From a virus, in IMG/VR virus record IMGVR_UViG_3300045286_000131, positions 6,728 to 70,727 of that record: a stretch of DNA of 64,000 nucleotides; one strand, written 5' to 3'. Every line of letters begins with the position of its first letter. Position 1 is the first letter of the stretch. The position numbers and the translations under genes are program-made. The notes under the pieces are model-generated. The model worked only from the letters and a program-made list of their open reading frames with translations. It searched no databases and was not told the origin of the DNA. This document shows, in pieces, positions 1,898 through 26,222 of this stretch.

Positions 1898-2224
1898 ATG
1901 AGAACGCTGCTTGAAATCGCCAATCGCATCCCGCCGTGCAAATGCCGCGCGATTGCCAGAAAGAATCGCGGGATGAAGCTGAAGACGCACGACGACATTG
2001 CCGCCGAATGCGGACTCAGCCGGCGAACCGTGATGCGCTACTCCCGCATGAAGGACTGGAATTCGATTCCGTTCGAGATGGCTCAGAAGTTTGCCAACGC
2101 CTGCGGCGTGAACCATCTTTCGCCTAGCAAGCAAATCCGGTTTTTGCGTCACGGTAAAACCATGTTCCTAAGAAACGCGCGGCCGAAGCAGCGCGTGATG
2201 CTGAAAAAACTGATGTCGGGTTAG
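1898..2224 (+). CDS. basic HTH DNA-binding protein
   Basis: THDDIAAECGLSRRTVMRY helix-turn-helix pattern. Confidence 0.55.
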   Translation: MRTLLEIANRIPPCKCRAIARKNRGMKLKTHDDIAAECGLSRRTVMRYSRMKDWNSIPFEMAQKFANACGVNHLSPSKQIRFLRHGKTMFLRNARPKQRVMLKKLMSG

Positions 2225-4163: not shown

Positions 4164-6593
4164 GTGATTATGATTGACCTGCAAATCTTGAGCCAAAGGG
4201 GCATCACCAGCGATGCCCTTAAAAAACTTTTCTCCGCAAATCCCGAAGACACGAAGGACTTGGACAAGGAGGCAGTCAAGCGCGTTGACGCCTTGAAGAA
4301 CCGAATCCGCTCCCGCATCCAAGAGGGAATGACGCGCAACCTGAAGGACTGGCGCTGGCTCTACGCTTTGGATGTCGCTTGGGAGACTCCCTTCCGTCAA
4401 ATCAACCCGACGCTGCTTCAGTCGTTGGTTGACAGTGGCCCGAATCCAAACAATGAAGACGTGATGAAGGTTGTCGCCGGGCTTGGACTTGAGCGATTTG
4501 TCACCGAGGAAAAAGACGCCGACGGAAAGGGGACTGGCAAAAAGATGCTGGATGTCCCGACGTTTTTCAACCTGCTCGTTCCGCTCGTAAAAGCCTACGT
4601 CACAATCCGCATGGCGAAGATTGTGAACGACCGGATTAACAACGGTTTTCTTGAAATCCAGCCGGCCCGCGCGAACACGATAAACAGGATGCGGACAGAG
4701 GCGCTTAACGCGCGCATCCGCATCATGGAGTCGCAGTTTTCCTACGTCGAAACCTTCCGCAAGCTTGTCCTTAATACGCTTCACTACGGCACCGCGATTC
4801 AGTTCATCATGGAGGAATGGTATTCTGAGACGCAGTTGAAGAAGGCGACCAAGGACGACGTTTTTCTTGGACTGAAGAAAAAAGACGCTGGCGGGGCCGA
4901 AGTGAACATAAAAGAAGACGACGAAATTACAGTCGTTTCCAAGGAGGGATTGCGCTACAAAATTCCGCATCCTTCCCGCCAGTTTCGCGATTTAGACCAT
5001 CCGCTTCACACGTTGAATAGCGATTCTGGCTGCGCTTACGTCGGCTACTGGTCGGTTGTCCGCTACCGCGACATTCTCAACAAGGGCTTTTGGAATATCA
5101 GCGCCGTTCCGCTTGGCAATACCAACATCATTGGCGAAAACTCCGCGTTTTTTCAGACCGTCTATTCCGCCTGCAAGTTAAAGATTCCGCTCGCCGAAGG
5201 CGCGGCGGCGGCGGAAGGCGGCGTTGGCACTGGAAAAAACGACGCCGAGCGCCAGATGTCGAACCAGTTTTACGGGACAGACCAAGAAGACCAAGGCGTT
5301 TTGCTGACAAACTATTTCGAGAAGCTTGTGCCCTCGGAATGCGGGCTTGGCGACTACGCGCATCCAGTGTGGTTTCGCTTTGTGGTTGCGTCGGATTCAG
5401 CCACCGTGCTTTACGCCGCGCCGCTGCCTTCCTGCCCGGCGATTTACGCCGGCTACGACCCCGACGAGTCCAAGGACAAGAATATGTCCATGTCGCTCGA
5501 AGTGATTCCGTTTCAGGATCAGTTTGGAATGGTGCTGAGTCAGATTGTTTTGTCGGCCAAGCAAAATCTGGCGAACATGACGCTGATTAACTCCGACATC
5601 CTCGACGACGACCAAGTTGCCAAGGTGAGAAATCTTGGCGAGGGATTTTTCCGCAAGCTGAACATCTTCTCAACATCCTTCAAAAAGATGATGAAGATGA
5701 AGACCGACCCGGAGCAGGCGCTTGTTTCCCACACGCTGCCGAAGGCTAACGTGGCGGAACTCACGAACGTCCTGAAGACCATCTTGGATGTCTTGGAGCG
5801 TGTGTTGATGATGTCGAACGTGGAAATCGCGCAGCAGGCATCGCATGAGCAGCCGGCGGCGGAAATCACTCAGCTTGCGGCCTCGACGACGAGCCGCGTT
5901 GCCTACACCGCAATCTCAATTGACGGCGCGCTCGACGCGCAGAAGCGCCAGCTTTACGAATACACAATGGCGTATGGCGACGAGTATTTTTACGCGCACG
6001 TTCCGTCCGACCCGCCGCTGGACAAAACGCATCTTTCGCTGCTTGGATTCGACTACGCAAGCGGCGACATCCTTTTCTCCGGCGACAAATACCGGCGCGT
6101 GAAAGTGAACCTAAAGCGGCTTCTGATTCCGTTGCACGAATTTGCCAAGTGCAACTTCAACGAGCCGCAGCGCGTTGACGCCAAGACGGCGGCATCCATC
6201 GCGCAACTTCTGCAACCGCTGATGAGCAATCCCGCCATCATGCAGATTCTTGGCCCGCAGCAGATAATTGGCATCACAAACCAGATGGGCAAGCTCGTAG
6301 GCTGGGACGATGATTTCCGTCTGCGCGCGGCAAACAAGTCGCCGGAACAAATCCAGCAGGAAGCCCAGATGCAGTTGAAGAAGACCATCGCGGCGCTCAT
6401 GCAGCAAGTGGATGCAAAGATTCTCGCCGACATAAAACCGCTCGCGGAAAAGGTTCAGGAAATTTCCAAAGCCGTCGGCGCAATCGAACACGCCGCCGGC
6501 CTCGCGGATCATTCCGCCTCGCCGGGCATGAGTCCGGCACCGCAGCCAATCCCTCAAAATGCTCAACCTCTCCCCGCAGCCGCCCAACAGTGA
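4164..6593 (+). CDS. probable portal protein
   Basis: 809 aa, mostly helical with a Gln/Pro-rich C-terminal tail; lies between terL and scaffold/capsid; the call is positional. Confidence 0.6.
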   Translation: MIMIDLQILSQRGITSDALKKLFSANPEDTKDLDKEAVKRVDALKNRIRSRIQEGMTRNLKDWRWLYALDVAWETPFRQINPTLLQSLVDSGPNPNNEDVMKVVAGLGLERFVTEEKDADGKGTGKKMLDVPTFFNLLVPLVKAYVTIRMAKIVNDRINNGFLEIQPARANTINRMRTEALNARIRIMESQFSYVETFRKLVLNTLHYGTAIQFIMEEWYSETQLKKATKDDVFLGLKKKDAGGAEVNIKEDDEITVVSKEGLRYKIPHPSRQFRDLDHPLHTLNSDSGCAYVGYWSVVRYRDILNKGFWNISAVPLGNTNIIGENSAFFQTVYSACKLKIPLAEGAAAAEGGVGTGKNDAERQMSNQFYGTDQEDQGVLLTNYFEKLVPSECGLGDYAHPVWFRFVVASDSATVLYAAPLPSCPAIYAGYDPDESKDKNMSMSLEVIPFQDQFGMVLSQIVLSAKQNLANMTLINSDILDDDQVAKVRNLGEGFFRKLNIFSTSFKKMMKMKTDPEQALVSHTLPKANVAELTNVLKTILDVLERVLMMSNVEIAQQASHEQPAAEITQLAASTTSRVAYTAISIDGALDAQKRQLYEYTMAYGDEYFYAHVPSDPPLDKTHLSLLGFDYASGDILFSGDKYRRVKVNLKRLLIPLHEFAKCNFNEPQRVDAKTAASIAQLLQPLMSNPAIMQILGPQQIIGITNQMGKLVGWDDDFRLRAANKSPEQIQQEAQMQLKKTIAALMQQVDAKILADIKPLAEKVQEISKAVGAIEHAAGLADHSASPGMSPAPQPIPQNAQPLPAAAQQ

Positions 6594-6882
6594 GGACGTA
6601 AAAAAACTTCGCGCGTGGTTAAACCAGCCGGAATTCAAATTGCTTGAGGCGTATCTTGTCGCCAAGGATGCCGAATTTACGGCCGAAGCCGGCAATAAGC
6701 TGATTGGATCTTCCAGCATTGACGGCATTGCCGGCGTGGAGGAAAACGTAAAGGATGCACAGGAATTTGCAGAAAAAGCGCGCACATACCGCGCCGTGAT
6801 TGACGTTTTGCGCGATGTCAAAAATCCTAAAAAAAGCCTTGAAACTCAAAAAGTCGAGCCTACGATAGTCGTAAATACTTAA
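6559..6882 (+). CDS. hypothetical protein
   Basis: 107 aa helical ORF following the portal candidate. Confidence 0.6.
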   Translation: MLNLSPQPPNSEDVKKLRAWLNQPEFKLLEAYLVAKDAEFTAEAGNKLIGSSSIDGIAGVEENVKDAQEFAEKARTYRAVIDVLRDVKNPKKSLETQKVEPTIVVNT

Positions 6883-6888
6883 TAATTT

Positions 6889-8364
6889 ATGGCTAAAAAC
6901 GAATTCAGCTTCACCAAAACCAAAAAGCCCGAAGTAAAGCCCGCGTCACCTGAGCCGAAGCCGGCTGAAAAGCCCCCGACGCCGGAAGAGATTGAGCAGT
7001 CCAAAGCCGAAATGCTGGACTCACTTGGATTTGGCGGTGGCGCTGAAAAAAAGAAGCCGGCCGCGCCGCCGGAAAAGAAGCCCGAAGGCGAGAAGCCGGC
7101 CGGTGAGGCGAAGCCCGAAGAAGCCAAGCCTGAAGCCGGCAAGCCAGCCGCGAAGACGCCGGACAAAATCGCTTCCACCGAAGACATCATTTCCAAGACC
7201 GCTGCGAAGACCGCCGCTGCCGTCGCTGAAAAACTTTCCCCGCCGAAGCCGGAGGCGGAAGAGGTCGAGGACGCCGGAATTGAGTTGAAGCCGGAAGACC
7301 AGAAGGAGTCCCGCATTCTGGCGAAGCTCGCCGAAATCAATCCGTCCAAATACGGCGATTCTGTCAAGCAGTTCGAGGACTGGTGTTCCAAGCTCTACAA
7401 ATACGAGGAAAAGTGGCTGGCGGAAAACCCCGGCAAGAAGTTCAACATTGACGACGAGGAACACGCCGAATTCATCGAACAGAACCAGCCGGAGATTGAC
7501 GAGGACGATTACGAGGAAGCCAAGATTCAACATCGCGTTGACGAGGCTTACGAGCGCCGCATTGCGCCGGAGCAGCGCATCAAGGAAACGCGGGAACGGA
7601 TTCAAGCCGCGATGCCAACCATTGTCAGAAATGTCCACAAGGGAGCCTACAATCTGATTGAAAAAATCAACCCCGAACTCGCCGCGTTGCTGAAAAACGA
7701 GAAAGGCGAAATTGTCATGGAGGACGCGAACTTCAAGAAGATTGAAGCCGCCGATCCGATTGCCTACAAAGGCTTGATTCCGATTGTCACCAGCGCCGCT
7801 CAGGTTTTGACATCGCTGGAACAGATTTCAATTCCCGGCATTTCGCTGAAGCTCGACCCGGAAAATGTTCCGGCCCACGCCGAAATTCTCGCCCTTGCGA
7901 AAACTTACGAGGACACGCTGATGAAAGCGCCGGAAGACGTTCGCATTGTAAACGGCCGCGCATTCATTACCGCTGCGGATCGCGCTGCGCGCATTGACAA
8001 AATCAACGCCGCGAAAACGTCCAAGGCGACGAAGCAGAAGAAGATTTCGGAACTCAATGACTCGACGTGGACGGTCGGGCCGGAAGAGCTTTCGGAGATT
8101 CTGGTGGAGAAGCTTGCGGCGAAGGCGAAGGCTTCAATTTCCGAAAACGACGAGCTTGCAAGGAAAAAATATGGCGGCGAGAAAAAACCCGCGAGTCCGA
8201 ATTATGCGCCGCCGATTGTCCGGCCGGAAGCCGGTGCCAGCCGCGAAAAACCACGCCCGCCGCAAGCAGGGGGCGGTGTTGAGCAAGTGACAGCATCTTC
8301 ACCAACTGGCGACGGGGATAAAAAATTCTCTGAAACCGCTACCGAAGTAGCGTTTGCAGGCTAG
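6889..8364 (+). CDS. probable capsid scaffolding protein
   Basis: E/K/P-rich disordered N-terminus with coiled-coil character, immediately upstream of the capsid candidate. Confidence 0.55.
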   Translation: MAKNEFSFTKTKKPEVKPASPEPKPAEKPPTPEEIEQSKAEMLDSLGFGGGAEKKKPAAPPEKKPEGEKPAGEAKPEEAKPEAGKPAAKTPDKIASTEDIISKTAAKTAAAVAEKLSPPKPEAEEVEDAGIELKPEDQKESRILAKLAEINPSKYGDSVKQFEDWCSKLYKYEEKWLAENPGKKFNIDDEEHAEFIEQNQPEIDEDDYEEAKIQHRVDEAYERRIAPEQRIKETRERIQAAMPTIVRNVHKGAYNLIEKINPELAALLKNEKGEIVMEDANFKKIEAADPIAYKGLIPIVTSAAQVLTSLEQISIPGISLKLDPENVPAHAEILALAKTYEDTLMKAPEDVRIVNGRAFITAADRAARIDKINAAKTSKATKQKKISELNDSTWTVGPEELSEILVEKLAAKAKASISENDELARKKYGGEKKPASPNYAPPIVRPEAGASREKPRPPQAGGGVEQVTASSPTGDGDKKFSETATEVAFAG

Positions 8365-8419
8365 GATATTTGTAATAGGTTTCGTGCTGGAATGAATCCG
8401 GCCGAAACCGAAAACAAAT

Positions 8420-10162
8420 ATGCCAGCCTCACCCTTCCAAAATACACCGTGCAAAGTTGTTGCAACGAACAACTTTGATACCGTCGGCACCATCACCCTC
8501 GCGTCTGTCAGTTGCCTGACGCCTGACCAACTCTCCCAGCTTTTCAAGCCGGGCGGCTTGTATGCCGACATGGACGCTTGGTTTCGCACCAGCTTTGAAA
8601 TGCAGGCGTGCGGTATCAAGTCCAACGGCCTTTACGACTGGCTGATGTCCAGCCGCAAGGACGTGAAGAGTCTCGTTTCGGTTCAGAAGATGGATCGCGG
8701 CCCGTCGCTGCTTTTCCCGTTCGTTCTGGCGCGTCAGGATTCCTTTGTGAACCTCGACTTCTTCGCCATCACGAACGGTTGGCAGAACAACGCCTATACC
8801 GCTGGCGTCACCGGCCCGCTCACTTCCGGCGACCTCGCGCTTGGCGCGACGACCGACCGTGTTATCCGCGTCGTGTCCCGCTACGGCGTTGACCTCGACA
8901 GCAAGTGGTTCCTGAGCCGCGACCGCGTTTACATCTCTAACTTGGCTTCCGGCCAGCGCACCGACGGCCAGTGGAAGGTTCTCGCGTCCGAAGTCTCCGC
9001 CGACAACAGCTATGTTGACGTTCTGGTGGCTTCCGAAAACGCCGGCTCCACCGCCGTTTACGATGCGGCCCCGACGGCCGGCGTCCTCGTTCGCGGCGGC
9101 AACAACGTGAACGACTTCGAGAGCTACTGCGGCAATCGCCCGACGATTGACACCCGCCATCGCGTTCCGTTCTGGTATCAGACCATGCGGCGCGGCCGGC
9201 AGGTGGACAGCGAATACAAGAAGGTTTTCGCGCGGCTCATGGAGTCCAACGAATACTACGCCGAATTCGGCGACCTTCCGTTGGCGGAGCGCAACCGTCA
9301 GGATGAAGCGAACTACCAGAAACAGTGGCTTAACAGCTTCTTCTGGGGCAAGCCGATTTCCGCCAACCAGACCCTCGCCGGCTGGCAGTCGCTCGAACAG
9401 ATTACGTCCGTGACCGGCGCGCACGTTGATCCCGGCTTGGGCGGCAAGCTCGTCGCCTACCGCGCCAACATGATTGGCGTCGTCGAGCAGTTGCGCCGCT
9501 GTGGCCGCGTCTGGGACTTGCAGAACACGTCATTGAATTTCTACGACTTCCTGCAATCCATCTACGAAATCGTCCGCGCCCGCAAGTCGCAGGGCAAGGC
9601 GGCGGATTCGATTGACGTGTTCACGGATTCCGTGACTGCCGCCAACATGGAGTCGGCGTTTATCGCCTACTACAAGAAGGAATACGGCGACATCATCCGC
9701 ATCAACATCGAAACCGGCGGCAACGAATGGGGCTTCCAGTGGCGCTCCTTTACCGTGAAGTTCCCGGCCGGCGTGAAAATCAACCTGATTTCCCACGATT
9801 ATTTCGATGACCTCTACAACGCGCACGTCACCGAAAACTCGGCTGCTGCCGGCCGGTTCCTGATGATTCTGGAAATGGGCAAGCCCGGCCCGCGCGGCGG
9901 CACCATCTATCCCGGCACCATCGCCAGCAACCGCAAGGTTCGCACGCTGGGCGACTTGGAGAAGCTGGCGGCGCTCGACCCGACGTTCGCCTGTGTCATG
10001 GAGCATCCGACCGACGAAATCACGCTCGTCTCGGAAACCGTCACGGCCATTGTGGAATGCCCGCTGAACAACCTCGTCATCCAGTCCATCGGCTCTGGCG
10101 TGCCGGACACTTCGACCGGCTACAACGGCCCGTCGTCTGGCCCGTATCAGCCGCTTTATTAA
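8420..10162 (+). CDS. probable major capsid protein
   Basis: 580 aa, visibly strong codon bias, follows the scaffold and is followed by a strong terminator. Confidence 0.65.
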   Translation: MPASPFQNTPCKVVATNNFDTVGTITLASVSCLTPDQLSQLFKPGGLYADMDAWFRTSFEMQACGIKSNGLYDWLMSSRKDVKSLVSVQKMDRGPSLLFPFVLARQDSFVNLDFFAITNGWQNNAYTAGVTGPLTSGDLALGATTDRVIRVVSRYGVDLDSKWFLSRDRVYISNLASGQRTDGQWKVLASEVSADNSYVDVLVASENAGSTAVYDAAPTAGVLVRGGNNVNDFESYCGNRPTIDTRHRVPFWYQTMRRGRQVDSEYKKVFARLMESNEYYAEFGDLPLAERNRQDEANYQKQWLNSFFWGKPISANQTLAGWQSLEQITSVTGAHVDPGLGGKLVAYRANMIGVVEQLRRCGRVWDLQNTSLNFYDFLQSIYEIVRARKSQGKAADSIDVFTDSVTAANMESAFIAYYKKEYGDIIRINIETGGNEWGFQWRSFTVKFPAGVKINLISHDYFDDLYNAHVTENSAAAGRFLMILEMGKPGPRGGTIYPGTIASNRKVRTLGDLEKLAALDPTFACVMEHPTDEITLVSETVTAIVECPLNNLVIQSIGSGVPDTSTGYNGPSSGPYQPLY

Positions 10163-10177
10163 GCACGCTTCGGATTC

Positions 10178-10208
10178 AAAAACCCCCGGCTTCGGCTGGG
10201 GGTTTTTT
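10178..10208 (+). terminator. intrinsic (possibly bidirectional) terminator
   Basis: AAAAACCCCCGGC-TTCG-GCTGGGGGTTTTTT hairpin with T tract. Confidence 0.9.
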
Positions 10209-10212
10209 ATTG

Positions 10213-10239
10213 TTGACAGCTACGCGACTTGCGTATAAT
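10213..10239 (+). promoter_or_regulatory. sigma70-type promoter for the HTH-GroES-cassette-intI operon
   Basis: TTGACA (10213-18) and TATAAT (10234-39) with a short 15-bp spacer; overlaps near-palindrome TACGCGACTTGCGTA. Confidence 0.6.
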
Positions 10240-10249
10240 CTTTTCGCGC

Positions 10250-10345
10250 ATGAGCCGCCAGACATATTTCATCGTTGGATTCATGGCCGGCGCGGTGACG
10301 GCCGGAGCGATTATCGGCACCGTCCTTTTTATTTACCGCCCTTGA
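10250..10345 (+). CDS. 31-aa single-TM peptide
   Basis: MSRQTYFIVGFMAGAVTAGAIIGTVLFIYRP, directly after the promoter and ending 3 nt before the next ATG. Confidence 0.45.
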   Translation: MSRQTYFIVGFMAGAVTAGAIIGTVLFIYRP

Positions 10346-10348
10346 TTT

Positions 10349-10534
10349 ATGACAAAGCCGACAAGCAAGAAACGGAACTTCCCGAAGGCGCTGAAAGAGT
10401 GGCGCAAGGGACGCGGATTTACGCAGCAGCAGGCGGCGAAGGTAATCGGCGTCAAGCTTGCCACCTACCGGAATTGGGAGCAGGGCAGAAACCGGCCGAT
10501 TGAGGCGCTGGTTAATTTTCTTTTTCACAAATAA
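10349..10534 (+). CDS. Cro/XRE-family HTH regulator
   Basis: LKEWRKGRGFTQQQAAKVIGVKLATYRNWEQGRNRP. Confidence 0.85.
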   Translation: MTKPTSKKRNFPKALKEWRKGRGFTQQQAAKVIGVKLATYRNWEQGRNRPIEALVNFLFHK

Positions 10535-10538
10535 TTTT

Positions 10539-10853
10539 ATGGCAAAAGTTCCACCAATGCCGAGGCGGCTTTTCGGAAACCGCGTTATTATCGCCGTCAA
10601 ACCTTCGGTTGGCGGATTCATTGTGAAGGATGGCGTTCTTGTTCCGAACCGCGAGGGCGAGTTTGGAAACCCGAACTTCCGCGAAGCAGTCATTGTGATG
10701 ACCGGCGAAGGCATCACCGAAGACCTGAAGCCCGGCGACAAGGTTTGCTGGAACAGTCGTGGCGGAGTTCCGTATCACGGACTGCTTGTGGTGAGCGTGC
10801 TGGACATTGAGTTTGTGATTCCGCCTAACGACAAGCTGAGCGACAGCCGATAA
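10539..10853 (+). CDS. groES: GroES/Cpn10-like co-chaperonin
   Basis: LFGNRVII..GG..VLVP..AVIVMTGEG..LKPGDKV..VLDIEFVI matches the Cpn10 pattern; the last 7 codons and the stop lie in attC-1. Confidence 0.7.
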   Translation: MAKVPPMPRRLFGNRVIIAVKPSVGGFIVKDGVLVPNREGEFGNPNFREAVIVMTGEGITEDLKPGDKVCWNSRGGVPYHGLLVVSVLDIEFVIPPNDKLSDSR

Positions 10854-10949
10854 AACCACATGAACTTTACAGACTTCAAAAAGCCATACGAGGCAACAAA
10901 AGCGTGGCTGCCGCAAGCCAAGGCTGTTCGCTCCGGCGATTTGTTAGAT
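10823..10949 (-). other. attC: attC site 1 (127 bp)
   Basis: + strand GCCTAAC-GACAA-GCTGAGCGACAGCC ... GGCTGT[T]CGCTC[C]GGC-GATTT-GTTAGAT; inverted arms with two extrahelical bases. Confidence 0.85.
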
Positions 10950-11708
10950 GTCCGTCGTATGGCTCAAACATCCATGCTAGATGGCAGGCTAATCGTGTGG
11001 TTTTCAATGGGTGCGGCGTCTGCCTGTATGCTCAAACTTTTGGCGCATCTAAAACCGATGGCTGTCTATTGCAACACGTCAAAAGACGAGCATCCCGACA
11101 ACCTGCGCTTCCGTGGCGAAATCGAACACTGGACAGGAATCAAAGTGACTGTCATCGGCTCGGACAAATACCAAACAACCGATGAAGTCTTTGAGGACAC
11201 GCAATACATGAGCGGTATCGGCGGCGCACGCTGCACAACTGAACTCAAAAAAATTCCGCGTCTGCGCTTCGCGTATGCCGAGGACATCCACTGCTTCGGA
11301 ATGACGGTGGACGAACAAAAACGCATCAAACAATTCGAGGCAAACAATCACGACATGAATCTAGCGTGGCCGCTAGTGACGGCAGGCATGACCAAACACG
11401 ACTGCCTGAAAGAACTAATGATGAATGGCATCGAACTGCCCGCCATGTATCAACTCGGCTTTGAAAACAATAACTGCATCGGATGCGTGAAGGCTCAAAG
11501 CCCCGACTACTGGAACAGAACGCGCAAACACTTTCCAGAACGCTTCCGCCAGCGGGCGGAACAAAGCCGACGACTCGGAGTGAAGCTAGTAAAGCTCCAC
11601 GGCGAACGAATCTTTCTCGATGAACTGCCCGAAAACGAAACTGAAAAACTGTCCGAGGACTTGTCATGCGGCCCGCAATGCGCTGACGCGAGGACATCTA
11701 ACGAATAG
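10860..11708 (+). CDS. PAPS-reductase/PP-loop family protein (cassette)
   Basis: IVWFSMGAASA PP-loop variant, CTTELKKIP, NNNCIGCVKA. Confidence 0.8.
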   Translation: MNFTDFKKPYEATKAWLPQAKAVRSGDLLDVRRMAQTSMLDGRLIVWFSMGAASACMLKLLAHLKPMAVYCNTSKDEHPDNLRFRGEIEHWTGIKVTVIGSDKYQTTDEVFEDTQYMSGIGGARCTTELKKIPRLRFAYAEDIHCFGMTVDEQKRIKQFEANNHDMNLAWPLVTAGMTKHDCLKELMMNGIELPAMYQLGFENNNCIGCVKAQSPDYWNRTRKHFPERFRQRAEQSRRLGVKLVKLHGERIFLDELPENETEKLSEDLSCGPQCADARTSNE

Positions 11709-11804
11709 CTATGCAGCCACCGACCGACCAACTAACGAGCGCAATGGACGTTACCGATTCACGGGGCGCGTCCGCCGGTGGTCTGCATCAGCGTCTTGTT
11801 CCCC
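11696..11804 (-). other. attC: attC site 2 (109 bp)
   Basis: ATCTAAC-GAATA-GCTATGCAGCCACCG ... CGGTGG[T]CTGCAT[C]AGC-GTCTT-GTTCCCC. Confidence 0.9.
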
Positions 11805-12484
11805 AGCCCTTTTACGAGGACTCACATATAACGCTCTACAACGCTGACTGCCGCCAAGTGCTGCCCCACCTGAAAGTCGCCAACGCCTTTTGCTTCACTG
11901 ACCCGCCCTACAATGTCGGCAAAGACTACGGCGTGTGGAATGACGAAATGCCAACGGCTGACTATCTGCAATTCTGCGCCGAATGGATCGCGGAAGTGAA
12001 ACGGCTCTGCCCCGAAGTCTGCATCTACCCGCCGACAAAATACCTGCTCGAATACTGGCAAATGCTTGGACGCGACTACAAGCAAATCGCGCTCACATGG
12101 AGTCCCGAAGGTGCAATCCGTGGCGGCTGGGTGAATCAATTCGTGACGCTGCTGACCAACGCGAAACCGAAACAGCGCACGAAAGACTGGTGGCATAACT
12201 GCCAGATGCAAGGACTCGGCTACTTCTTCCGTGAAGAATCCTACGGGCATCCAGGCTACACCAGTGAGGATGTGACAAACCGCGTGCTGGCGGCCGTGTG
12301 TCCGACGGATGCAACTGTAATCGAACCTTTCGCCGGCACGGGGACAACTCTGTGGTGCGCGAAACTCCGTGGCATGAAAGCCATCGGATGCGAGATAAAC
12401 CCGAAATACTGCGAACTCATAGCCTCACGATGCGCCCAAAGCGTGCTGGGGCTGGGGAACGGCGGAGCTATGCCACGCCAGTAG
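11711..12484 (+). CDS. N4C/N6A DNA methyltransferase, beta class (cassette)
   Basis: TDPPYN (motif IV) precedes EPFAGTGTT (motif I) and GCEIN. Confidence 0.9.
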   Translation: MQPPTDQLTSAMDVTDSRGASAGGLHQRLVPQPFYEDSHITLYNADCRQVLPHLKVANAFCFTDPPYNVGKDYGVWNDEMPTADYLQFCAEWIAEVKRLCPEVCIYPPTKYLLEYWQMLGRDYKQIALTWSPEGAIRGGWVNQFVTLLTNAKPKQRTKDWWHNCQMQGLGYFFREESYGHPGYTSEDVTNRVLAAVCPTDATVIEPFAGTGTTLWCAKLRGMKAIGCEINPKYCELIASRCAQSVLGLGNGGAMPRQ

Positions 12485-12560
12485 TAAAGGAAAACATGAC
12501 AACTCAAAAAAACAAGAAACGGCCAACGCCAAAGGCGTTGGCATCAGCGACTGGTTCGGC
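12454..12560 (-). other. attC: attC site 3 (107 bp)
   Basis: GGGGAAC-GGCGGA-GCTATGCCACGCC ... GGCG[T]TGGCAT[C]AGC-GACTG-GTTCGGC. Confidence 0.9.
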
Positions 12561-12762
12561 ATGGGTGCGCGTAAAAGACAAACTCCCAATGGAATCGGAA
12601 CGGGTCATCGCCATCTATCGCGGCGTGTATCACCACCGCATCGTGACATTCTGGCGTGACGCCGGAGGAACGCCGCACTTCGGACATCCGAGCGAACCGG
12701 ATGGCAAAGGAAGCCAACCCGCAACCCACTGGCATCCGCTGCCGGAAATGCCGAACAGTTAA
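12496..12762 (+). CDS. DUF551-like phage protein (cassette)
   Basis: WVRVKDKLP...ATHWHPLPEMP signature; ATG 12496 preceded by AAAGGAAAAC. Confidence 0.8.
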   Translation: MTTQKNKKRPTPKALASATGSAWVRVKDKLPMESERVIAIYRGVYHHRIVTFWRDAGGTPHFGHPSEPDGKGSQPATHWHPLPEMPNS

Positions 12763-12788
12763 TTGAACAACTCCAACTTTGTTTATTT
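12748..12788 (-). other. attI: putative attI site
   Basis: ATGCCGAAC is complementary to the other end of the first cassette (GTTCGGCAT); no hairpin partner follows; directly 5' of intI; further GTT motifs on the - strand. Confidence 0.7.
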
Positions 12789-13772
12789 ATGACTGCCATT
12801 GAAATGTTGAAAGCTGCCATTGTAGAACAGGCTTGCGATGATGATACGTTTCAGCAATACGCATTTTGGGTTCGGAAGATTTATCATCATTTGAAAATTC
12901 CAGCCTCACAATGGACAACGGTGGACATGAACAAGGGCTTGATGTGGTTGCGGTCGGAAAATTATGCGGATCAGTCCCAGCGGTGCGCCTTGTGTTCGGT
13001 GGTTTTCTTTTTCCGGTATGTTTTGAAGCGCGAACTTGGTCGGCTGGATTTGCCAGCCATGCCCAAGCAGCGCAAGCAACTCAAGGAAGTCCCGACGCGG
13101 GAGGAAGTCGCCAAACTTATCATGCTGTTGCGCGATGAGTTTCGGCTGATGGGCGGTTTGATGTATGGCGGCGGCACTCGCGTAAAAGAAACCTGCAAGC
13201 TGCGCGTGAAGGATTTTGATTTCGACAACTGCGAAATCCGCATCCACAACGACACCGCCAAGGGTAAAAAATCCCGCTTGCCGCCTTTGCCACAAGCGAT
13301 GATTCCAGCGTTAAAGGATTACTTTGACAACAAACGCCGCGAACTCTACGAGCGCGATCTGGCGCAAGGCTGGGGCTTTGTGGAATTACCCGGAAGACTG
13401 GCGAACAAATACAAGTCGGCCAATCGTGAATATGGCTGGCAGTTTGCTTTTCCTTCACGCGCCGTTTCTCCAACTGGATACCGATGGCACATCACGCCGG
13501 AAGCGTTTCAGAACGAACTCCGCAAGGCTCGGCAGATTGCCGGCATCATCAAGCCGGTGACACCCCACACGCTGCGTCATGCCTTCTGCACCCATGCGCT
13601 AGAGAACGGAACCGAGTTTGAAACCGTCCGCAAATGGATGGGGCATGAGGACGCCAATACCACTTTGATTTACGCGCATACCACCAAGCGCGGCGAGTCG
13701 CCGATGGATTTTGGCCGTAACCTACGCCGATTCCAGATGCCGCCGCAAATCACTTTCGACGCCAAAAACTAA
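12789..13772 (+). CDS. intI: integron integrase (tyrosine recombinase)
   Basis: Catalytic R (YGGGTRVKE), K (AKGKK), HTLRH, MGH, TTLIY, plus the IntI-specific insertion DLAQGWGFVELPGRLANKYKSANREYGWQFAFPS. Confidence 0.93.
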   Translation: MTAIEMLKAAIVEQACDDDTFQQYAFWVRKIYHHLKIPASQWTTVDMNKGLMWLRSENYADQSQRCALCSVVFFFRYVLKRELGRLDLPAMPKQRKQLKEVPTREEVAKLIMLLRDEFRLMGGLMYGGGTRVKETCKLRVKDFDFDNCEIRIHNDTAKGKKSRLPPLPQAMIPALKDYFDNKRRELYERDLAQGWGFVELPGRLANKYKSANREYGWQFAFPSRAVSPTGYRWHITPEAFQNELRKARQIAGIIKPVTPHTLRHAFCTHALENGTEFETVRKWMGHEDANTTLIYAHTTKRGESPMDFGRNLRRFQMPPQITFDAKN

Positions 13773-14534
13773 ATGAAAACATCCATCCTGATAGTCACCT
13801 TTCGCAGAGACATTGAGTTCTGCACGTTCGCCCTGAAATCCATCGCCAAGTTTGCGGCCGGATTTTTGGAGACGGTCGTTGTTGTTCCTGAAAGCGACAA
13901 GGAGTTGTTTGGCGCGCTCCACGCGACATATAATTTCAAGCTGCGGCCGGTTCCAGAGCCGGCTGGAAAAGGGATGCTGAACCAAATGCTGGTGAAAAGC
14001 ACGGCGGATAGTTTCTGCCCGCAAGCGGATTTCATTTTGCATTTCGACAGCGACTACATTTTCACCGCGCCAGTTACGCCGGAAACTTATTTTCGGGACG
14101 GCAAGCCGGTTCTGGTTTGCAACCCGTATGAAAACGTGACCGAGGCCGGACACCGGCAATGGCAGCGGGTGGCTCAAAACGCCGTCGGGTTTGCGGTTCC
14201 GTTCGATACCATGTGCCGCCTGCCGATTATCCACTTGGCGGAGGTTTACCCGAAGCTGCGGGCGCACGTCGAGAATCACACCGGGCTTCCGCTTGAGGAA
14301 TTCATCATGGGCGGGCGTGCCGAGTATCCGCAATCATATGCGGAATTTCCGACCATTGGCGCGATTGCGCTTCATTTCTTCCGCGACGAATACACAGTCG
14401 TTGACCTGTCCAAAGAGCCGGAGCCGAAAAATCCAATCATGCGCGGATGGAGTCACGGCGGCATGGATCACGAAATGCTTTTTCAGGACGGTGAAACGAC
14501 GACTGCGCGGAAGAAGTGGGCGCAGTATCTTTGA
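13773..14534 (+). CDS. GT-A fold glycosyltransferase-like protein
   Basis: SILIVTF..D N-terminus and ILHFDSD DxD motif. Confidence 0.65.
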   Translation: MKTSILIVTFRRDIEFCTFALKSIAKFAAGFLETVVVVPESDKELFGALHATYNFKLRPVPEPAGKGMLNQMLVKSTADSFCPQADFILHFDSDYIFTAPVTPETYFRDGKPVLVCNPYENVTEAGHRQWQRVAQNAVGFAVPFDTMCRLPIIHLAEVYPKLRAHVENHTGLPLEEFIMGGRAEYPQSYAEFPTIGAIALHFFRDEYTVVDLSKEPEPKNPIMRGWSHGGMDHEMLFQDGETTTARKKWAQYL

Positions 14535-14569
14535 CTTTTTAAGCCCGACGTTTACAGGGCAATAAAAAT

Positions 14570-14770
14570 GGCCGGCGGCTGACCGCGACATGGAGTGATG
14601 CGCCGTTACAGCCGCCGGCCCTAGATTTACGGTGCGACTACACCTTGCAGGATAGCCGGAAATCCTGTTGAAATATGGATTCCCGCGATGAGTCGCCACG
14701 GAAGGGTATGGCTTCCGCTTCATACCGTGGATGGGAATGCTGTTTTTCTAATGGCAGCACGCAATGCGTC
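14570..14770 (+). ncRNA. candidate structured non-coding RNA
   Basis: About 300-nt gap lacking a convincing ORF, with serial stems including a perfect 12-bp GGCCGGCGGCTG/CAGCCGCCGGCC; strand uncertain. Confidence 0.4.
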
Positions 14771-14833
14771 CTCCGGCCAATTTCGTTAAAAAACGCTTTT
14801 CAAACCGGAAAGCGGTGATAAAGTCGAATTGTT

Positions 14834-15328
14834 ATGGCAATCAAGTTTTACAAAAAGACATCCCCCCGCACGACCGTCAAATTTGGAAACTTCGCCCTGA
14901 CCTTCCCGACGTTCGACAACATTGTTGGCTATTATTCCACCGACAACGCTGCGGTTCAGGCCGCGCTGGCCGACTACATCGCCAACCAGCAATACGGCCT
15001 CACGGAGATTTCGCAGGAGGAATACAACGCCGACTACCTCGAAAAAAAAAACAATGGGGCGACATTGCCGCCGCGACAATATCGGGAGGAAATAACCAGC
15101 AGAGGATTTTCGTCCGGCCAGCACCAAGGGGCTTATTCGGGGGACACAAGAGTTGCTGCGGTGGTTAGAACCGGCAACGGATCAATTGCCCCGAAATCCG
15201 AAACCCAAATGACCATCGCCGAAAGCTCCGAAGCCGATTCTATTGCACAGCCGAAGCCGGCGGTTTCGCCGACGGCGCAACCTCTTCCCGCCGGCCAGTT
15301 CCAACCATCCACCGGAAAGCGCAAGTAA
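14834..15328 (+). CDS. hypothetical protein
   Basis: 164 aa, abuts the next gene. Confidence 0.65.
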   Translation: MAIKFYKKTSPRTTVKFGNFALTFPTFDNIVGYYSTDNAAVQAALADYIANQQYGLTEISQEEYNADYLEKKNNGATLPPRQYREEITSRGFSSGQHQGAYSGDTRVAAVVRTGNGSIAPKSETQMTIAESSEADSIAQPKPAVSPTAQPLPAGQFQPSTGKRK

Positions 15329-17671: not shown

Positions 17672-18565
17672 ATGAAAACCATCCAATCATTGTTTTTATC
17701 ACTGGCCGTTATTTGCCTCGCCATCGGCCCCGCCAGCGCCGGAATTTTCCAGAACTCCGTCACGACGACGAACGATGCCGGCGTTCAAGCGTTCATCGCA
17801 ACGCACCTCCCAACGTCGCCCGACATCGCGTCCACGTTCTATTGCACCAACTACGGACAGATTTTCGGAATCCAGCCGGACGGAACCGTTTTGACGACGA
17901 ACATCTACAACCATTCGTGGTCGTTGACCGATACGAACGGGCAGGTTGCCTACCACACTTGGAACAACGGCACGCTTTTGTTTGCCACCAATGCCTTTGT
18001 CGTGCAGTTCACGAACGCGCCAACGTATTCGCCTACCAACATTAACGGCATCACTTACTGGATTTCAAACTATACCGGCTCCGCAATGATTTTCAGCAAC
18101 GGGCAAGTGTCGGTGGGCGGCTCCGTGATTGATATGTCCGTCTTGGGGCCGGTTCTCGCCCAAGTGACGAACGTATTTACAGCGTTAAACTCTTTTTCAA
18201 ACCAGATTGTAAACGTGGTGTCCAACGGGTTTGCCACGAACAAGCTGTTTGCGGCACCGCTGTCTTACATTTCAAATCCAATTACCATCAATGCGCTTTT
18301 CACGAACTCCTACGGCGTCAGAATCACAGGCGGAATTGATTACTTGCTGGACACGACTACTGGCGGCGGCTCCCACGGCTCGTTTGTTTACACAAACCTG
18401 AGCAACGGAGCGAGCAGCTTGGTTGACCTTTACTCTGCAACATCCGTATCCGGCGGGCGGGTTACGCTTGCCAACAGATTCAACTTCGACATGGGGCCGA
18501 ACGAAGTCATCAAGTTTTACAACACGACGAACTTTACGCTCATATCCAGTTTCATTCTCAAATGA
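17672..18565 (+). CDS. signal-peptide, Thr/Asn-rich beta protein in the tail block
   Basis: MKTIQSLFLSLAVICLAIGPASA leader; many TN dipeptides. Confidence 0.65.
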   Translation: MKTIQSLFLSLAVICLAIGPASAGIFQNSVTTTNDAGVQAFIATHLPTSPDIASTFYCTNYGQIFGIQPDGTVLTTNIYNHSWSLTDTNGQVAYHTWNNGTLLFATNAFVVQFTNAPTYSPTNINGITYWISNYTGSAMIFSNGQVSVGGSVIDMSVLGPVLAQVTNVFTALNSFSNQIVNVVSNGFATNKLFAAPLSYISNPITINALFTNSYGVRITGGIDYLLDTTTGGGSHGSFVYTNLSNGASSLVDLYSATSVSGGRVTLANRFNFDMGPNEVIKFYNTTNFTLISSFILK

Positions 18566-20424
18566 ACTTAAACTTTCCAGAAATCAAAACCGACTCTGCC
18601 GTTGTTCCAGAGATGGAGCCGGAGTTGATTGTGAAGCCGGGCCGGCTGGTGATGGAGGTTGGGCAGGTTGTGAACCTTCAGGCATACACCAGAAATTCAA
18701 TCGGCGAGACGGCGGTTTTGGCTGGCGTCAGGTTTTCCAGCGACAACCCGCTGGTTGTGTCGGTTAATTCAGACGACGGCAGTATCCGGCTTTTGTCGGC
18801 CGGCGCTGCGACCATTCGCGCGCAATGGAAAGACCTTCAGGCGAGTGTGATGGTGACGGTGGTTCAGAGCATGGCCCAGACCCCGTTGAGCTACGCAATC
18901 GCCGTGGACAATTCGCAGTCAATGTCCGGCCGGCTTCCGCTGGCAAAGTTTCTGGCGCAAAGTTTTTACGACAGCATCAATGTCGCCAAGGATTCGGTTT
19001 CGCTTTTGACGTTCACCACGGACAGTCAGGAAATCAAGCCGCTGGCCGAGGACTTGACGCTTTCGGCTCCCGACTTTCAAAACATCCAGCCGTCGGAAGG
19101 CAAGACAAGCATCGCAACCGCGATTGAAGGATGCCTGTCTGAATTTGCCGGTGTGCCGGCCGCGCAAAGAATCATCCTCATCATTTCTGACGGCGGCGAT
19201 TATCTGCTTGAGGACAAGGATGCGATGGACGAAACAATTTCAATCGCCAAAGCGTTCAAGGACTCCGGCGGCATCATCTGTGTGGCCGGCATCTCCGCGT
19301 TCGCCGCCGGATACGACTTGCTGCAAAGAATCGCAACCGAGGGGTTTTTCCTTAACATCAATGCGTCCGGCGATTATTCGACGCAGTATGCCGACAGCGG
19401 AATCGTTTCCGGCTGGATTGGTTTTTTCTGCGGAGCGCAACCGACGCTCGCCTACTCGCCGAAGGCGCAAAAACAATTTGAGCTTCCTTGGGCAGACCCG
19501 GAGGACGGAGGCGCGCAGCCGAAATACGAGGCGGTTTCGACGCGGCGAATTGACGTTGCCGGCGGCTATCAAAACATCAAGGCATTGATCGGCCCGAAGT
19601 CGTTGGCGAGCGGAACGGCAACCGCGTCGTCCGAGTCTCCGGCTGCGCGGGCATTTGCGGCATTCGAGTCTATTGGCAATGGATGGAGTTCTGCGATTGG
19701 AAACAAGGCGGCGTGGCTTCAGTTTCAGTTTCTTGTTCCTCGCCGCGTGCTGGCGTATGAAATCACCTTCCCGTCCAATCCGGCAAGTCTTCCCGCAAGT
19801 TGGGTGTTTCAGGGGAGCCCGGACGGAATCAACTGGTATGCTCTCGACGTGCAGACCGGATTTGTCGCCTTTGCCGGCCAGAAGGTGCGGTTTGAAATCG
19901 CAAACCCGAACGTCACCGTCCAATACTATCAAATCAGCTTCAGTGCGGCGGCAGCGGGCGCGACGGCAGTTGGCGTTGGACGGCTTCAGCTTTACGGCAT
20001 CGGCGACCCCGAAGTTGGCTTCGCACGCTGCTGGTCGTGTCTTAACTTGCAGGACGCGCAAGACAAGGCGTTTGCGCTGGCAGGAATTATCGCGGCGTCA
20101 AAGATGAATCTGAAGCGCCAAAGAATTCCGGGCGTTATTGTCACGCCAAACAGCGGTGCGATTATCAATGGAATCTCCTTGGGGTTTTCAGTCGCCGGCT
20201 ACCCGACCGCGCGAGTGCGTTACACCATCGGCGTTAATGCCCACCCGCAAATCCCGTCGTTTGACGAAGTGGCGTCACAGGCGAATGGAATCGAATGGGA
20301 TGGAAACCCTGTTGTGCTTTCCGTGCCGGCCGGATTCACCGACAAGGTTTACGTTCGCGCCGTTGCGCGCTATCAGGATTATCAGGACAGCATTTACACC
20401 GAAGCCGTGTTTACCCGGCAATAA
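18562..20424 (+). CDS. Ig-like + vWA + discoidin (F5/8-like) multidomain tail protein
   Basis: FSSDNPLVVSVNSDDG (Big_2-like); MIDAS DNSQS..T..ISDG; WLQFQF..PASWVFQGSPDGINW. Confidence 0.8.
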   Translation: MNLNFPEIKTDSAVVPEMEPELIVKPGRLVMEVGQVVNLQAYTRNSIGETAVLAGVRFSSDNPLVVSVNSDDGSIRLLSAGAATIRAQWKDLQASVMVTVVQSMAQTPLSYAIAVDNSQSMSGRLPLAKFLAQSFYDSINVAKDSVSLLTFTTDSQEIKPLAEDLTLSAPDFQNIQPSEGKTSIATAIEGCLSEFAGVPAAQRIILIISDGGDYLLEDKDAMDETISIAKAFKDSGGIICVAGISAFAAGYDLLQRIATEGFFLNINASGDYSTQYADSGIVSGWIGFFCGAQPTLAYSPKAQKQFELPWADPEDGGAQPKYEAVSTRRIDVAGGYQNIKALIGPKSLASGTATASSESPAARAFAAFESIGNGWSSAIGNKAAWLQFQFLVPRRVLAYEITFPSNPASLPASWVFQGSPDGINWYALDVQTGFVAFAGQKVRFEIANPNVTVQYYQISFSAAAAGATAVGVGRLQLYGIGDPEVGFARCWSCLNLQDAQDKAFALAGIIAASKMNLKRQRIPGVIVTPNSGAIINGISLGFSVAGYPTARVRYTIGVNAHPQIPSFDEVASQANGIEWDGNPVVLSVPAGFTDKVYVRAVARYQDYQDSIYTEAVFTRQ

Positions 20425-20439
20425 AGAGAAAGTAAAAAT

Positions 20440-21333
20440 ATGCAATGGCCCTATACGTTCACCAACACGCGCAAGGATTTCTTTGCGAACATTCCGACGG
20501 CCGGATCGTCCTCATGCTCGGCCTTCGCGAAGGCGCTTATCACGCTTCCGTATATGCTTTTCCAACTTGTCCGCACGATGATTGACGAGGGCGGGAACAT
20601 GACGGCGACATATCTCTCCATGATTTACTCGCCCGGCGACATCAAGCTTTCCGCCGCAAATCTGGCCGGCGGTGTCCAGAAGGGTTCATGGCTGGCCTGC
20701 GATGGCGGCGTTTACTTAAAGACTGCGTATCCCGACTTATACGCAGCCATTGGCGATATTTACGCCACCCAGACAAACCCAAACATTCTTGACGCGAACG
20801 GAAACATTGTCCCCGTTCAACCACTTCAGGCCGGATACTTTCGTGTCCCTGACATGAGGGGGCTTGCGCCGGTTGGAGTCGGATCGCTTGCGGTTGGAGG
20901 CTCCGTTGTCTTGGGAAATTCCGGCGGCGAGTCCGCGCACAGGCTTGTTGTGAGCGAGTTGGCACCCCACGAACACGACTTGTTTCTGACGCACGGACTG
21001 ACGAACACCAGCACCGTGACGGCGTATGCGCCGATTGGAAACGGGGCGTCGGTTGGAACCATCGGGCTTACGCAGTTTCAGTATCCGCAGGACATTCAAT
21101 CCTACTCTCCGACCTACAAGCCGGCCCAGCCTGACGGCGTGCAGAAGGCCGGCGGCATTCAGGTTGCACAGACTGAATCCGACGCGCAGCAATTCGGAAC
21201 CGACCAGAATTATTATGCGGCGAAAAAGCACAACAATATGCAGCCGTATATCGGGGTGAATTTTTACATTTTTGCCGGCGTGCCGGTTACAGTGAACACG
21301 CCTTCGCCCGACCAAACGCTTACGCCAATCTGA
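20440..21333 (+). CDS. tail collar domain protein
   Basis: WLACDG..YPDLYAAIG..FRVPDMRG..HNNMQPYIGVNFYI. Confidence 0.85.
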   Translation: MQWPYTFTNTRKDFFANIPTAGSSSCSAFAKALITLPYMLFQLVRTMIDEGGNMTATYLSMIYSPGDIKLSAANLAGGVQKGSWLACDGGVYLKTAYPDLYAAIGDIYATQTNPNILDANGNIVPVQPLQAGYFRVPDMRGLAPVGVGSLAVGGSVVLGNSGGESAHRLVVSELAPHEHDLFLTHGLTNTSTVTAYAPIGNGASVGTIGLTQFQYPQDIQSYSPTYKPAQPDGVQKAGGIQVAQTESDAQQFGTDQNYYAAKKHNNMQPYIGVNFYIFAGVPVTVNTPSPDQTLTPI

Positions 21334-21336
21334 GCA

Positions 21337-26179: not shown

Positions 26180-26222
26180 GTTTTGATTGATTTCGCGGGA
26201 AAACGAAGGCATAACATTCCTT

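Follow-up and report, generated by a model that had tools for sequence, protein, structure and literature searches.

A probable integron resident in a phage genome, with cassette genes that point towards the integrase

Integrons are known as bacterial tools that spread resistance genes. A 64,000-nucleotide stretch of viral DNA raises the question whether a phage may carry and operate such a device in its own genome. The stretch, called the window here, comprises bases 6728-70727 of the 70,727-base IMG/VR virus record IMGVR_UViG_3300045286_000131, which is classed as linear. The region in question holds an open reading frame (ORF) for an integron-type tyrosine recombinase (intI), a short putative attI site in front of it, and three gene cassettes, each with a candidate attC site (Table 1). 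The first-pass annotation, made from the letters alone, had read the region as a complete integron built into a phage genome. Our analysis agrees: IntI, attI and three attC-bounded cassettes occur together with terminase, tail and collar matches in a virus record, which to judge from these features is that of a genuine phage carrying a genuine integron. It is very probable that the integron is resident in the phage genome and that IntI moves cassettes at attI and attC.

Whether the recombinase is of the integron type can be judged from its family, its fold and its phylogeny. Its top family is TIGR02249, integron integrase (NCBIfam; 238 bits, model positions 2-306 of 315), far ahead of the XerD (115 bits) and XerC (110 bits) models, and it also matches the tyrosine recombinase families PF00589 (E-value 4e-29) and PF13495. 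The best solved structure is that of VchIntIA (2A3V, E-value 2.4e-44), which aligns with residues 19-304 in one stretch, insertion included. The next structure match, the XerC-like 4A8E, aligns in two pieces (18-183 and 237-299) and skips the insertion. The segment concerned, residues 184-236, has 53 residues in the window protein, 52-53 in its clade and 57-59 in IntI1 and IntIA, compared to 17-31 in 11 other tyrosine recombinases. The catalytic residues R131, K158, H260, R263, H286 and Y295 are invariant in 15 clade members and align with those of VchIntIA. Both the full R-K-H-R-H-Y set and the IntI-type insertion, as claimed in the first-pass annotation, are thus present, and the inserted sequence that it had quoted lies within the ORF.

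In a quick maximum-likelihood tree of 65 rows, 54 IntI-like proteins (including class 1 IntI1 and Vibrio IntIA) are split from 11 outgroup tyrosine recombinases with a support of 96 in the Shimodaira-Hasegawa-like approximate likelihood ratio test (SH-aLRT); the tree comes from a short search, and its outgroup is one without E. coli XerC and XerD and with some long branches. The window IntI belongs to a clade of 12 rows, which lies within a larger one of 39 rows (support 100 for each); among the 39 are proteins named integron integrase by their sources. The grouping with IntI1 and Vibrio IntIA, apart from other tyrosine recombinases, supports an IntI-type protein, and this was the phylogenetic check suggested at the outset. 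XerC, XerD and ordinary phage integrases share the tyrosine recombinase catalytic fold with the window IntI, but they lack the insertion of 52-59 residues and stand separately in the tree. A scan of genome contigs gave one distant Nitrospirae match (27% identity), and in 401 genomes of the Nitrospirae phylum the integron integrases are just 36-40% identical; they were not used further.

Candidate attC sites were located with a scanner for the layout AAC, 4-8 nucleotides (nt), 3-bp stem, bulge, 5-6 bp, bulge, 5 bp, 4-7 nt and GTT, with the bulges on the 3' arm. In the whole 70.7-kb record, scanned on both strands, there are three matches free of mismatches, all on the + strand (10827-10945, 11700-11800 and 12458-12556) and all with T and C as the bulged bases. 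A fourth match, on the - strand (59056-59126), has one mismatch and one G-T pair and is at chance level. First-order Markov shuffles (30 in number) contained on average 0.07 mismatch-free matches per genome, and a match with T and C bulges in none of the 30. The three sites measure 127, 109 and 107 bp, counting 4 nt of the R box on each side. On the + strand, each consists of four variable bases and AAC, 5-6 nt, an arm, a loop, the complementary arm, 5 nt, and GTT with variable bases; the complementary arm has two extra bases, first a T and then, 5-6 bp later and 3 bp before the end of the arm, a C. According to the accessible text of PMC5027507, the attC bottom strand is 57-141 bp long and has a 5'-RYYYAAC R' box cleaved between A and C, a 3' GTTRRRY, an unpaired spacer of 5-6 nt, and extrahelical bases by L'', with T conserved at the distal position. 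Apart from deviations that are discussed below, the three sites appear to conform to this description. The earlier account of three imperfect repeats of 107-127 bp with AAC/GTT ends, 5-6 nt spacers and two extrahelical bases has held up against both scanner and shuffles.

Looser scans of 9900-11000, of 12700-15200 and around a related locus (L003, see below) gave low-quality matches only; the array stops at attC0, and there is no site downstream of intI. No copy of GTTAGGCGG, the partner expected for the R' box of attC0, is present within the window, which fits attC0 as the last site. A covariance model of eight sites was dropped, because MAFFT split the L' arms and left no usable consensus structure. 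The loop of attC2 contains a terminator-like hairpin on the - strand (12522-12548; 11 pairs followed by a T run, as a consensus match only), which would halt transcription running outward from attI.

The cassettes end in GTTAGATGTCC (10943) and GGACATCTAAC (11692), in GTTCCCCAGCCC (11798) and GGGCTGGGGAAC (12449), and in GTTCGGCAT (12554) and ATGCCGAAC (12748), as the first-pass annotation had quoted them, and the two ends of each cassette are perfectly complementary over 9-12 nt. The annotation had taken this as a footprint of integration as circles, and the numbers agree with it: such ends are present in seven of the eight complete cassettes across all loci, compared to a complementarity of at least 9 nt in 4 of 9338 GTT/AAC pairs taken at random from the window, at distances of 200-1200 nt.

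It could be argued that these are inverted repeats that arose by chance, or that the record is an assembly chimera of a bacterial integron and a phage contig. Single inverted repeats of 9-12 nt about 700 nt apart are indeed expected by chance in 2-3 kb, the region 10700-12900 contains 38 repeat pairs, and the data are metagenomic. However, the shuffled genomes do not account for three clean sites, all adjacent and on one strand, and runs of at least 9 nt at fixed GTT/AAC positions are as rare as stated above. With regard to a chimera, phage genes lie on both flanks of the array, on one strand. Moreover, the junction of backbone, attC0 and cassette (10804-10954) recurs at 100% identity in the contigs of a second, independent study, with 100% identical pieces spanning 10510-11117, which speaks against a chimera. 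The statistics and the second study contradict both chance and chimera, and next to no weight can be given to either.

The strongest part of the case for an integron is comparative. Three related loci are available, namely L004 (on the same contig as L002 and L011), L003 and L005, with IntI identities to the window of 93, 84 and about 89-90%, respectively (range 84-93%). L003 is another IMG/VR virus record, and L004 and L005 are metagenome contigs. In the alignment of the four loci, the common block runs from the AAC before intI to the intI stop codon, and both flanks are unrelated, so that only attI (33 nt) and intI are common to all. No cassette genes shared among the four loci were found by tblastn. 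Four different ends (ATGCCGAAC, GCCGTCTAAC, CACGCCTAAC and TGCCCCCTAAC) stand before the common 33 nt, and the divergence of the flanks exactly between the second A and the C (AA/C) would mark the junction of attI and cassette. The regions upstream of attI in L003 and L005 contain four further sites of the same geometry with different genes; the cargo there includes a different methyltransferase (phrog_67, E-value 8e-58) and small proteins. Related attC sites can be associated with different genes, as in L003 (1268-1364) and L004 (7039-7139). Comparison of this interval in relatives had been proposed as a check, and the interval is variable, with every cassette different and the break exactly at AA/C. 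The sequence comparison indicates that the cassettes are discrete mobile units that turn over among relatives.

There are also weaker hints of mobility. The first 33 nt of L003 exactly repeat its positions 1781-1813, the end of the attI-proximal cassette, but what comes next is an attC and not attI. Either the cassette is duplicated or moved, or the assembly graph branches at this point. For two runs, X1 and X2, the assembled contigs leave most of the stretch without cover. In X1, the likely source run, a 375-nt contig matches 11698-11800 only, with 11 differences and unrelated flanks, and a 31-nt unitig ends at 12756. The three related contigs all break at most 1.85 kb upstream of attI.

A solitary cassette is located at 7039-7471 of L004, 6 kb downstream of intI in this 30-kb relative. 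It has an attC of the same geometry (close to that of L003 at 1268-1364), a 131-residue ORF on the + strand and 12-nt complementary ends. The sequence that comes after it, AGTGATTGTAAC, is similar to the beginning of attI (AGTTAATTGAAC), and the cassette may have inserted at a secondary site.

The relatives also bear on the possibility that the integron is a decayed relic, captured from a host, with cassettes that are now fixed phage genes and with recombination that has ceased. A relic would be consistent with the lack of circle or deletion junctions in the assembled contigs of the two runs, which cover little of the stretch, and with genes that span cassette borders and are tightly packed with their neighbours. 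The accessible text of PMC9892861 also describes several phage integrons as host-derived fragments. Yet the ratio of nonsynonymous to synonymous substitution rates (dN/dS) for intI is 0.03-0.07, at 0.53-0.64 synonymous differences per site, which is near saturation. Despite this near-saturation in the adjoining gene, the noncoding attI is invariant save for one 4-nt patch. These values indicate strong purifying selection on intI and conservation of attI, which contradict a relic, as does the absence of any common cassette from four loci with IntIs as similar as these. A relic is, in our opinion, quite improbable, and a working integron remains the preferred reading.

The homology of the four loci ends at the intI stop codon (13772/13773 in the window), and the genes downstream differ in all four. 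The module is thus not a passive passenger of one backbone, and the pair of intI and attI behaves as a unit that travels from one phage backbone to another; no site to account for this movement was found.

The attI site is compact. Its junction box (AAC A GTTAATTG) is separated by GAAC from a second box, nnnnAAC TTT GTTTATTT. The core AACTTTGTTT of this intI-proximal box is shared with the attI1 crossover region of a class 1 integron from a Klebsiella plasmid (L092), and the last 10 letters of the core are those at the attI1 crossover (…CATCTAAC TTTGTTTTAGGG). In the window, the crossover would fall between 12755 and 12756. The second box may be bound as an accessory site, in the manner of the attI1 direct repeats, or it may serve as an alternative crossover. 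Just 5' of the second AAC box, the 4-nt patch (12771-12774) differs in all four loci (CTCC, CGCT, GCCT and CGCC). The difference could be due to drift at an unconstrained spot or be the trace of a second crossover site.

A further question is in which direction the cassette genes are read. In every cassette, attC is at the low-coordinate end, and the cassette gene starts within or just after its own attC. The class 1 integron L092 served as a strand control. With intI1 set on the + strand, the scanner used for the window finds the attC sites of both aadA16 and dfrA27 upstream of intI1 and also on the + strand, and the annotated cassette genes are on the - strand. By this standard, the placement of intI, attI and attC in the window is canonical, and its + strand is the bottom strand. 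The PAPS_reduct, N6_N4_Mtase and DUF551 family matches, however, are all to ORFs on the + strand. As far as can be told from control and family matches, the cassette genes are on the recombining bottom strand, point to attI and intI, and are co-directional with the phage operon. This polarity, opposite to that of canonical cassettes, was absent from the first-pass annotation. Top-strand cassette genes that are read away from attI from the cassette promoter Pc are not what is found here. In the accessible text of PMC5027507, the selection of the bottom strand serves to point genes away from attI, for expression from Pc.

How, then, would the genes be expressed? The attI site of 33 nt, compared to about 135 nt from the crossover to the intI1 start in L092, leaves no room for Pc or the integrase promoter Pint. 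A scan by consensus match only found no promoter-like site on the + strand in 9800-15000, which fits read-through expression. Since the cassette genes are on the bottom strand along the + strand operon of the phage, cargo and intI would be expected to be expressed by read-through from phage promoters, with no Pc at attI. Translation appears to be fitted to the same arrangement. The crossover AAC is read in frame as Asn by each cassette gene, and the stops lie 7-25 nt into the neighbour (AAC GAA TAG; AAC GGC GGA GCT ATG CCA CGC CAG TAG; AAC AGT TAA). The PAPS-reductase-like ORF, which has an alternative start at 10960, just past R'', stops 7 nt beyond the end of its cassette. The methyltransferase ORF starts inside the L' arm of its own attC and stops 25 nt past the cassette end. 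The DUF551 ORF has an AAGGA ahead of its ATG, in the attC loop, and takes its stop codon from attI. The attI-proximal genes of L003 and L005 likewise end in Asn-Ser-stop. An attC could therefore act as a translational joint that provides a stop for the upstream gene and a start for its own.

The proposed mechanism is as follows. IntI would recombine the double-stranded attI with folded single-stranded attC hairpins, and also attC with attC. The recombining bottom strand, here the + strand, would be cut within each 5' AAC, between its second A and its C. The outcome would be insertion, excision and reordering of the DUF551, DNA methyltransferase and PAPS-reductase-like cassettes. The data demonstrate the parts and how they are arranged, the turnover of cassettes among relatives, and selection on intI and attI; catalysis, the mode of expression and a role in counter-defence are what we infer from sequence.

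Several observations weigh against this interpretation. The score of IntI is below the curated cut-off of TIGR02249 (265 bits). Whole-site fold z-scores on the + strand (-0.6, -1.2 and -2.2) are unexceptional, and the bulged L stem is recovered in only one of three minimum-energy folds (11689-11812); in attC2, a local hairpin in the loop is preferred over the L stem. In view of the weak z-scores, the folding test was replaced by the geometric scanner, the shuffles and the class 1 control. The extrahelical base nearest L'' is C instead of the usual G, and just two of the four R' boxes match RYYYAAC (GCCTAAC and ATCTAAC, not GGGGAAC and GCCGAAC). The attI site is very short. Genes cross the cassette borders, so that a moved cassette would alter the last 2-8 residues of its protein. 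One cassette of L003 (1362-1813), with two ORFs, has only 5 nt of end complementarity; it may be a fusion. The record is 87% complete by the CheckV estimate, the phage is known from metagenome assemblies only, and no recombination product has been observed directly.

Alternatively, IntI could be, or could double as, a lysogeny integrase that inserts the whole phage into a host integron, in which case the attC-like sites would be traces or targets of this reaction. IntI is the sole tyrosine recombinase that turned up in the record, and the search for serine recombinases gave none. Two more distant records with an IntI are classed as proviruses, and a Vibrio prophage with excision points in attC sites is described in the accessible text of PMC9892861. 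However, integration of the whole phage leaves three single-gene units with complementary ends unexplained, and the same is true for relatives that differ cassette by cassette at AA/C and keep attI. Moreover, intI is located within the late structural operon and not in a lysogeny module, and at the estimated completeness the record could lack another integrase. A role in lysogeny is on balance unlikely, and cassette exchange by IntI would account for these features.

To what extent is such an element new? The first-pass annotation had contrasted it with integrons that are classically on chromosomes, plasmids or transposons. This overstated the novelty, because phage integrons and attC clusters have been in print since 2023 (PMC9892861). 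According to its accessible text, that screen of 10,705 phage genomes found three complete integrons and one lone integrase, in temperate phages, as well as 17 attC clusters without an integrase, and five methyltransferase cassettes. The complete and integrase-bearing cases comprised a section of the chromosomal integron of Vibrio, a class 1 mosaic carried by P1 and a prophage of Shewanella that is inactive. These elements resemble the window in having integron parts in phage genomes and methyltransferase genes in cassettes. The virulent-phage cases in the same text are without an integrase, whereas the window has intI, and the IntIs of the screen are 31-36% identical to that of the window. 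In a Vibrio phage copy (L094), the host genes rplT, rpmI, infC and thrS adjoin intI. The intI-attI module of the window, in contrast, recurs with changing cassettes in one other virus record and two metagenome contigs. Upstream of intI in L094, the two proximal ORFs (1643-1837 and 1998-2531) are divergent from intI, and a methyltransferase coding sequence further out (670-1338) is co-directional with it.

Class 1 integrons are similar to the window in the extra domain of IntI, in an attI at the 5' end of intI, in attC bottom strands on the intI-coding strand, and in site geometry (5' AAC, spacer of 5-6 nt, two extrahelical bases 5-6 bp apart, 3' GTT). They differ in IntI sequence (36% identity), in cassette genes on the opposite strand, in the first extrahelical base (C in the window, G in class 1), and in cargo, which consists of resistance genes in class 1 and of phage DNA-modification genes in the window. 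In the literature, we found no phage-resident IntI lineage with its own attI (subscription journals and the supplements of PMC9892861 were outside the search) and no arrays with all genes on the bottom strand (those supplements, which possibly list orientations, were again outside the search). The element is of a known kind; what is new is gene polarity, the compact attI and the lineage.

A scan of IMG/VR with the clade alignment gave 80 loci. Among the 13 loci that belong to the IntI clade of the window and have an IntI 44-50% identical to that of the window, attC-like sites upstream of intI are present on the + strand in 12 and on the - strand in none. Methyltransferases with Pfam support are encoded on the + strand in two of five loci tested, and of four frames tested on the - strand none had a match. 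Three of the four IntI-bearing records that were searched have a terminase match. The length of stop-to-stop frames was tried as a guide to the coding strand in other loci, and was uninformative at their G+C content.

A different arrangement is seen in a group of loci (L043-L052) and in Virus Rctr41k (GenBank phage record KX853513, L095), where the sites are downstream of intI and on the opposite strand, with methyltransferase-like genes between them. In Rctr41k (4680-10097), the IntI-like protein, annotated as 'xerD', is 35% identical to the window IntI, and there are five clean attC-like sites. Rctr41k is apparently an unannotated integron of a type with a turned integrase: the array is downstream of intI and its bottom strand is opposite to the genes, so that intI is the turned part. 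The accessible text of a preprint (10.1101/2022.02.06.479319) states that typical Spirochaetota IntIs are generally in reverse orientation. Integrons of this kind and Rctr41k are like the window in that intI and cassette genes are co-directional. However, the window has intI in its canonical place and turned genes, whereas in Rctr41k the turned part is intI. Rctr41k also stands apart from the window in the tree, in the group of IntI1, at a fork that has an SH-aLRT of 88 and is drawn open.

It is about an even call whether these loci belong to a large population of integrons native to phages, as yet undescribed, in which counter-restriction genes are swapped between phages and attC serves as a translational joint. 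Co-directionality with phage transcription would be attained in two ways, either with cassette genes on the attC bottom strand upstream of intI, as in the window (Type A), or with intI itself turned, as in Rctr41k and L043-L052 (Type B). The cargo, with an orphan methyltransferase, a PAPS-reductase-like protein and small phage proteins, suggests an exchange of DNA-modification and counter-restriction genes among phages. Bacterial integrons stock anti-phage defences, according to the abstract of a preprint from 2024 (10.1101/2024.07.02.601686). If our interpretation is correct, a phage lineage with its own integrase, compact attI and DNA-modification cassettes would have a gene-shuffling device on the other side of this arms race, and cassettes would have a path between phages and the integrons of hosts. 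The reversed polarity is relevant to a central rule for integrons: the geometry is the same, and expression is apparently obtained the other way round.

Table 1. Coordinates of the integron and of phage features in the window
Feature	Position	Strand	Evidence or detail
intI, integron-type tyrosine recombinase, 327 residues	12789-13772	+	TIGR02249, 2A3V alignment, tree, insertion length
attI, C AGTTAATTGAACAA-nnnn-AACTTTGTTTATTT	12756-12788	+	conserved in four loci except 4-nt patch
Cassette A, attI-proximal	12460-12755 (296 nt)	+	9-nt complementary ends
DUF551 ORF, 88 residues, in cassette A	12496-12762	+	PF04448, E-value 3.8e-7
attC2, site of the DUF551 cassette	12449-12562	+	scanner 0 mismatches; R' GGGGAAC ends 12460; spacer 12461-12466; L' 12467-12479; L'' 12534-12548 with extra T, C; spacer 12549-12553; R'' GTTCGGC from 12554
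Cassette B	11702-12459 (758 nt)	+	12-nt complementary ends
N6/N4 DNA methyltransferase ORF, 257 residues, in cassette B	11711-12484	+	PF01555, E-value 2.2e-20; phrog_67, E-value 9e-32
attC1, site of the methyltransferase cassette	11692-11809	+	scanner 0 mismatches; minimum-energy fold gives bulged stem; R' ATCTAAC ends 11702; spacer 11703-11707; L' 11708-11722; L'' 11776-11792 with extra T, C; spacer 11793-11797; R'' GTTCCCC from 11798
Cassette C	10829-11701 (873 nt between AA/C crossover points)	+	11-nt complementary ends
PAPS-reductase-like ORF, 282 residues, in cassette C	10860-11708	+	PF01507, E-value 1.6e-5; phrog_424, E-value 2.9e-43
attC0, distal, site of the PAPS-reductase-like cassette	10823-10953	+ (bottom strand)	scanner 0 mismatches, 1 G-T pair; R' GCCTAAC ends 10829; spacer 10830-10834; L' 10835-10848; L'' 10922-10937 with extra T, C; spacer 10938-10942; R'' GTTAGAT from 10943
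Terminator-like hairpin, strong	10178-10207		3' of 580-residue ORF
Large terminase subunit	2221-3789	-	phrog_2, E-value 1.8e-18
Tail and virion-structural matches	18562-23316
Phage tail collar domain	20440-21333

The first-pass annotation had placed the integron between the head and tail modules of the phage. The tail side of this claim is supported by the tail and virion-structural matches. On the head side, the presumed head ORFs (4164-10162) and the 'groES'-like ORF (10539-10853) have no family match in PHROGs or Pfam (all four ORFs searched), and an NCBIfam search limited to the ORFs 10539-10853 and 8420-10162 gave no match either. The placement is therefore plausible, and half shown. A small XRE-type helix-turn-helix protein is encoded at 10349-10534 (PF01381, E-value 2e-9), between the strong terminator-like hairpin and the 'groES'-like ORF; no attC was found around its gene, which is outside the array. 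The + strand holds nearly every long ORF between 4164 and about 43000, including two very long ones 3' of the tail genes, at 26187-31655 (1822 residues) and 33290-42994 (3234 residues).

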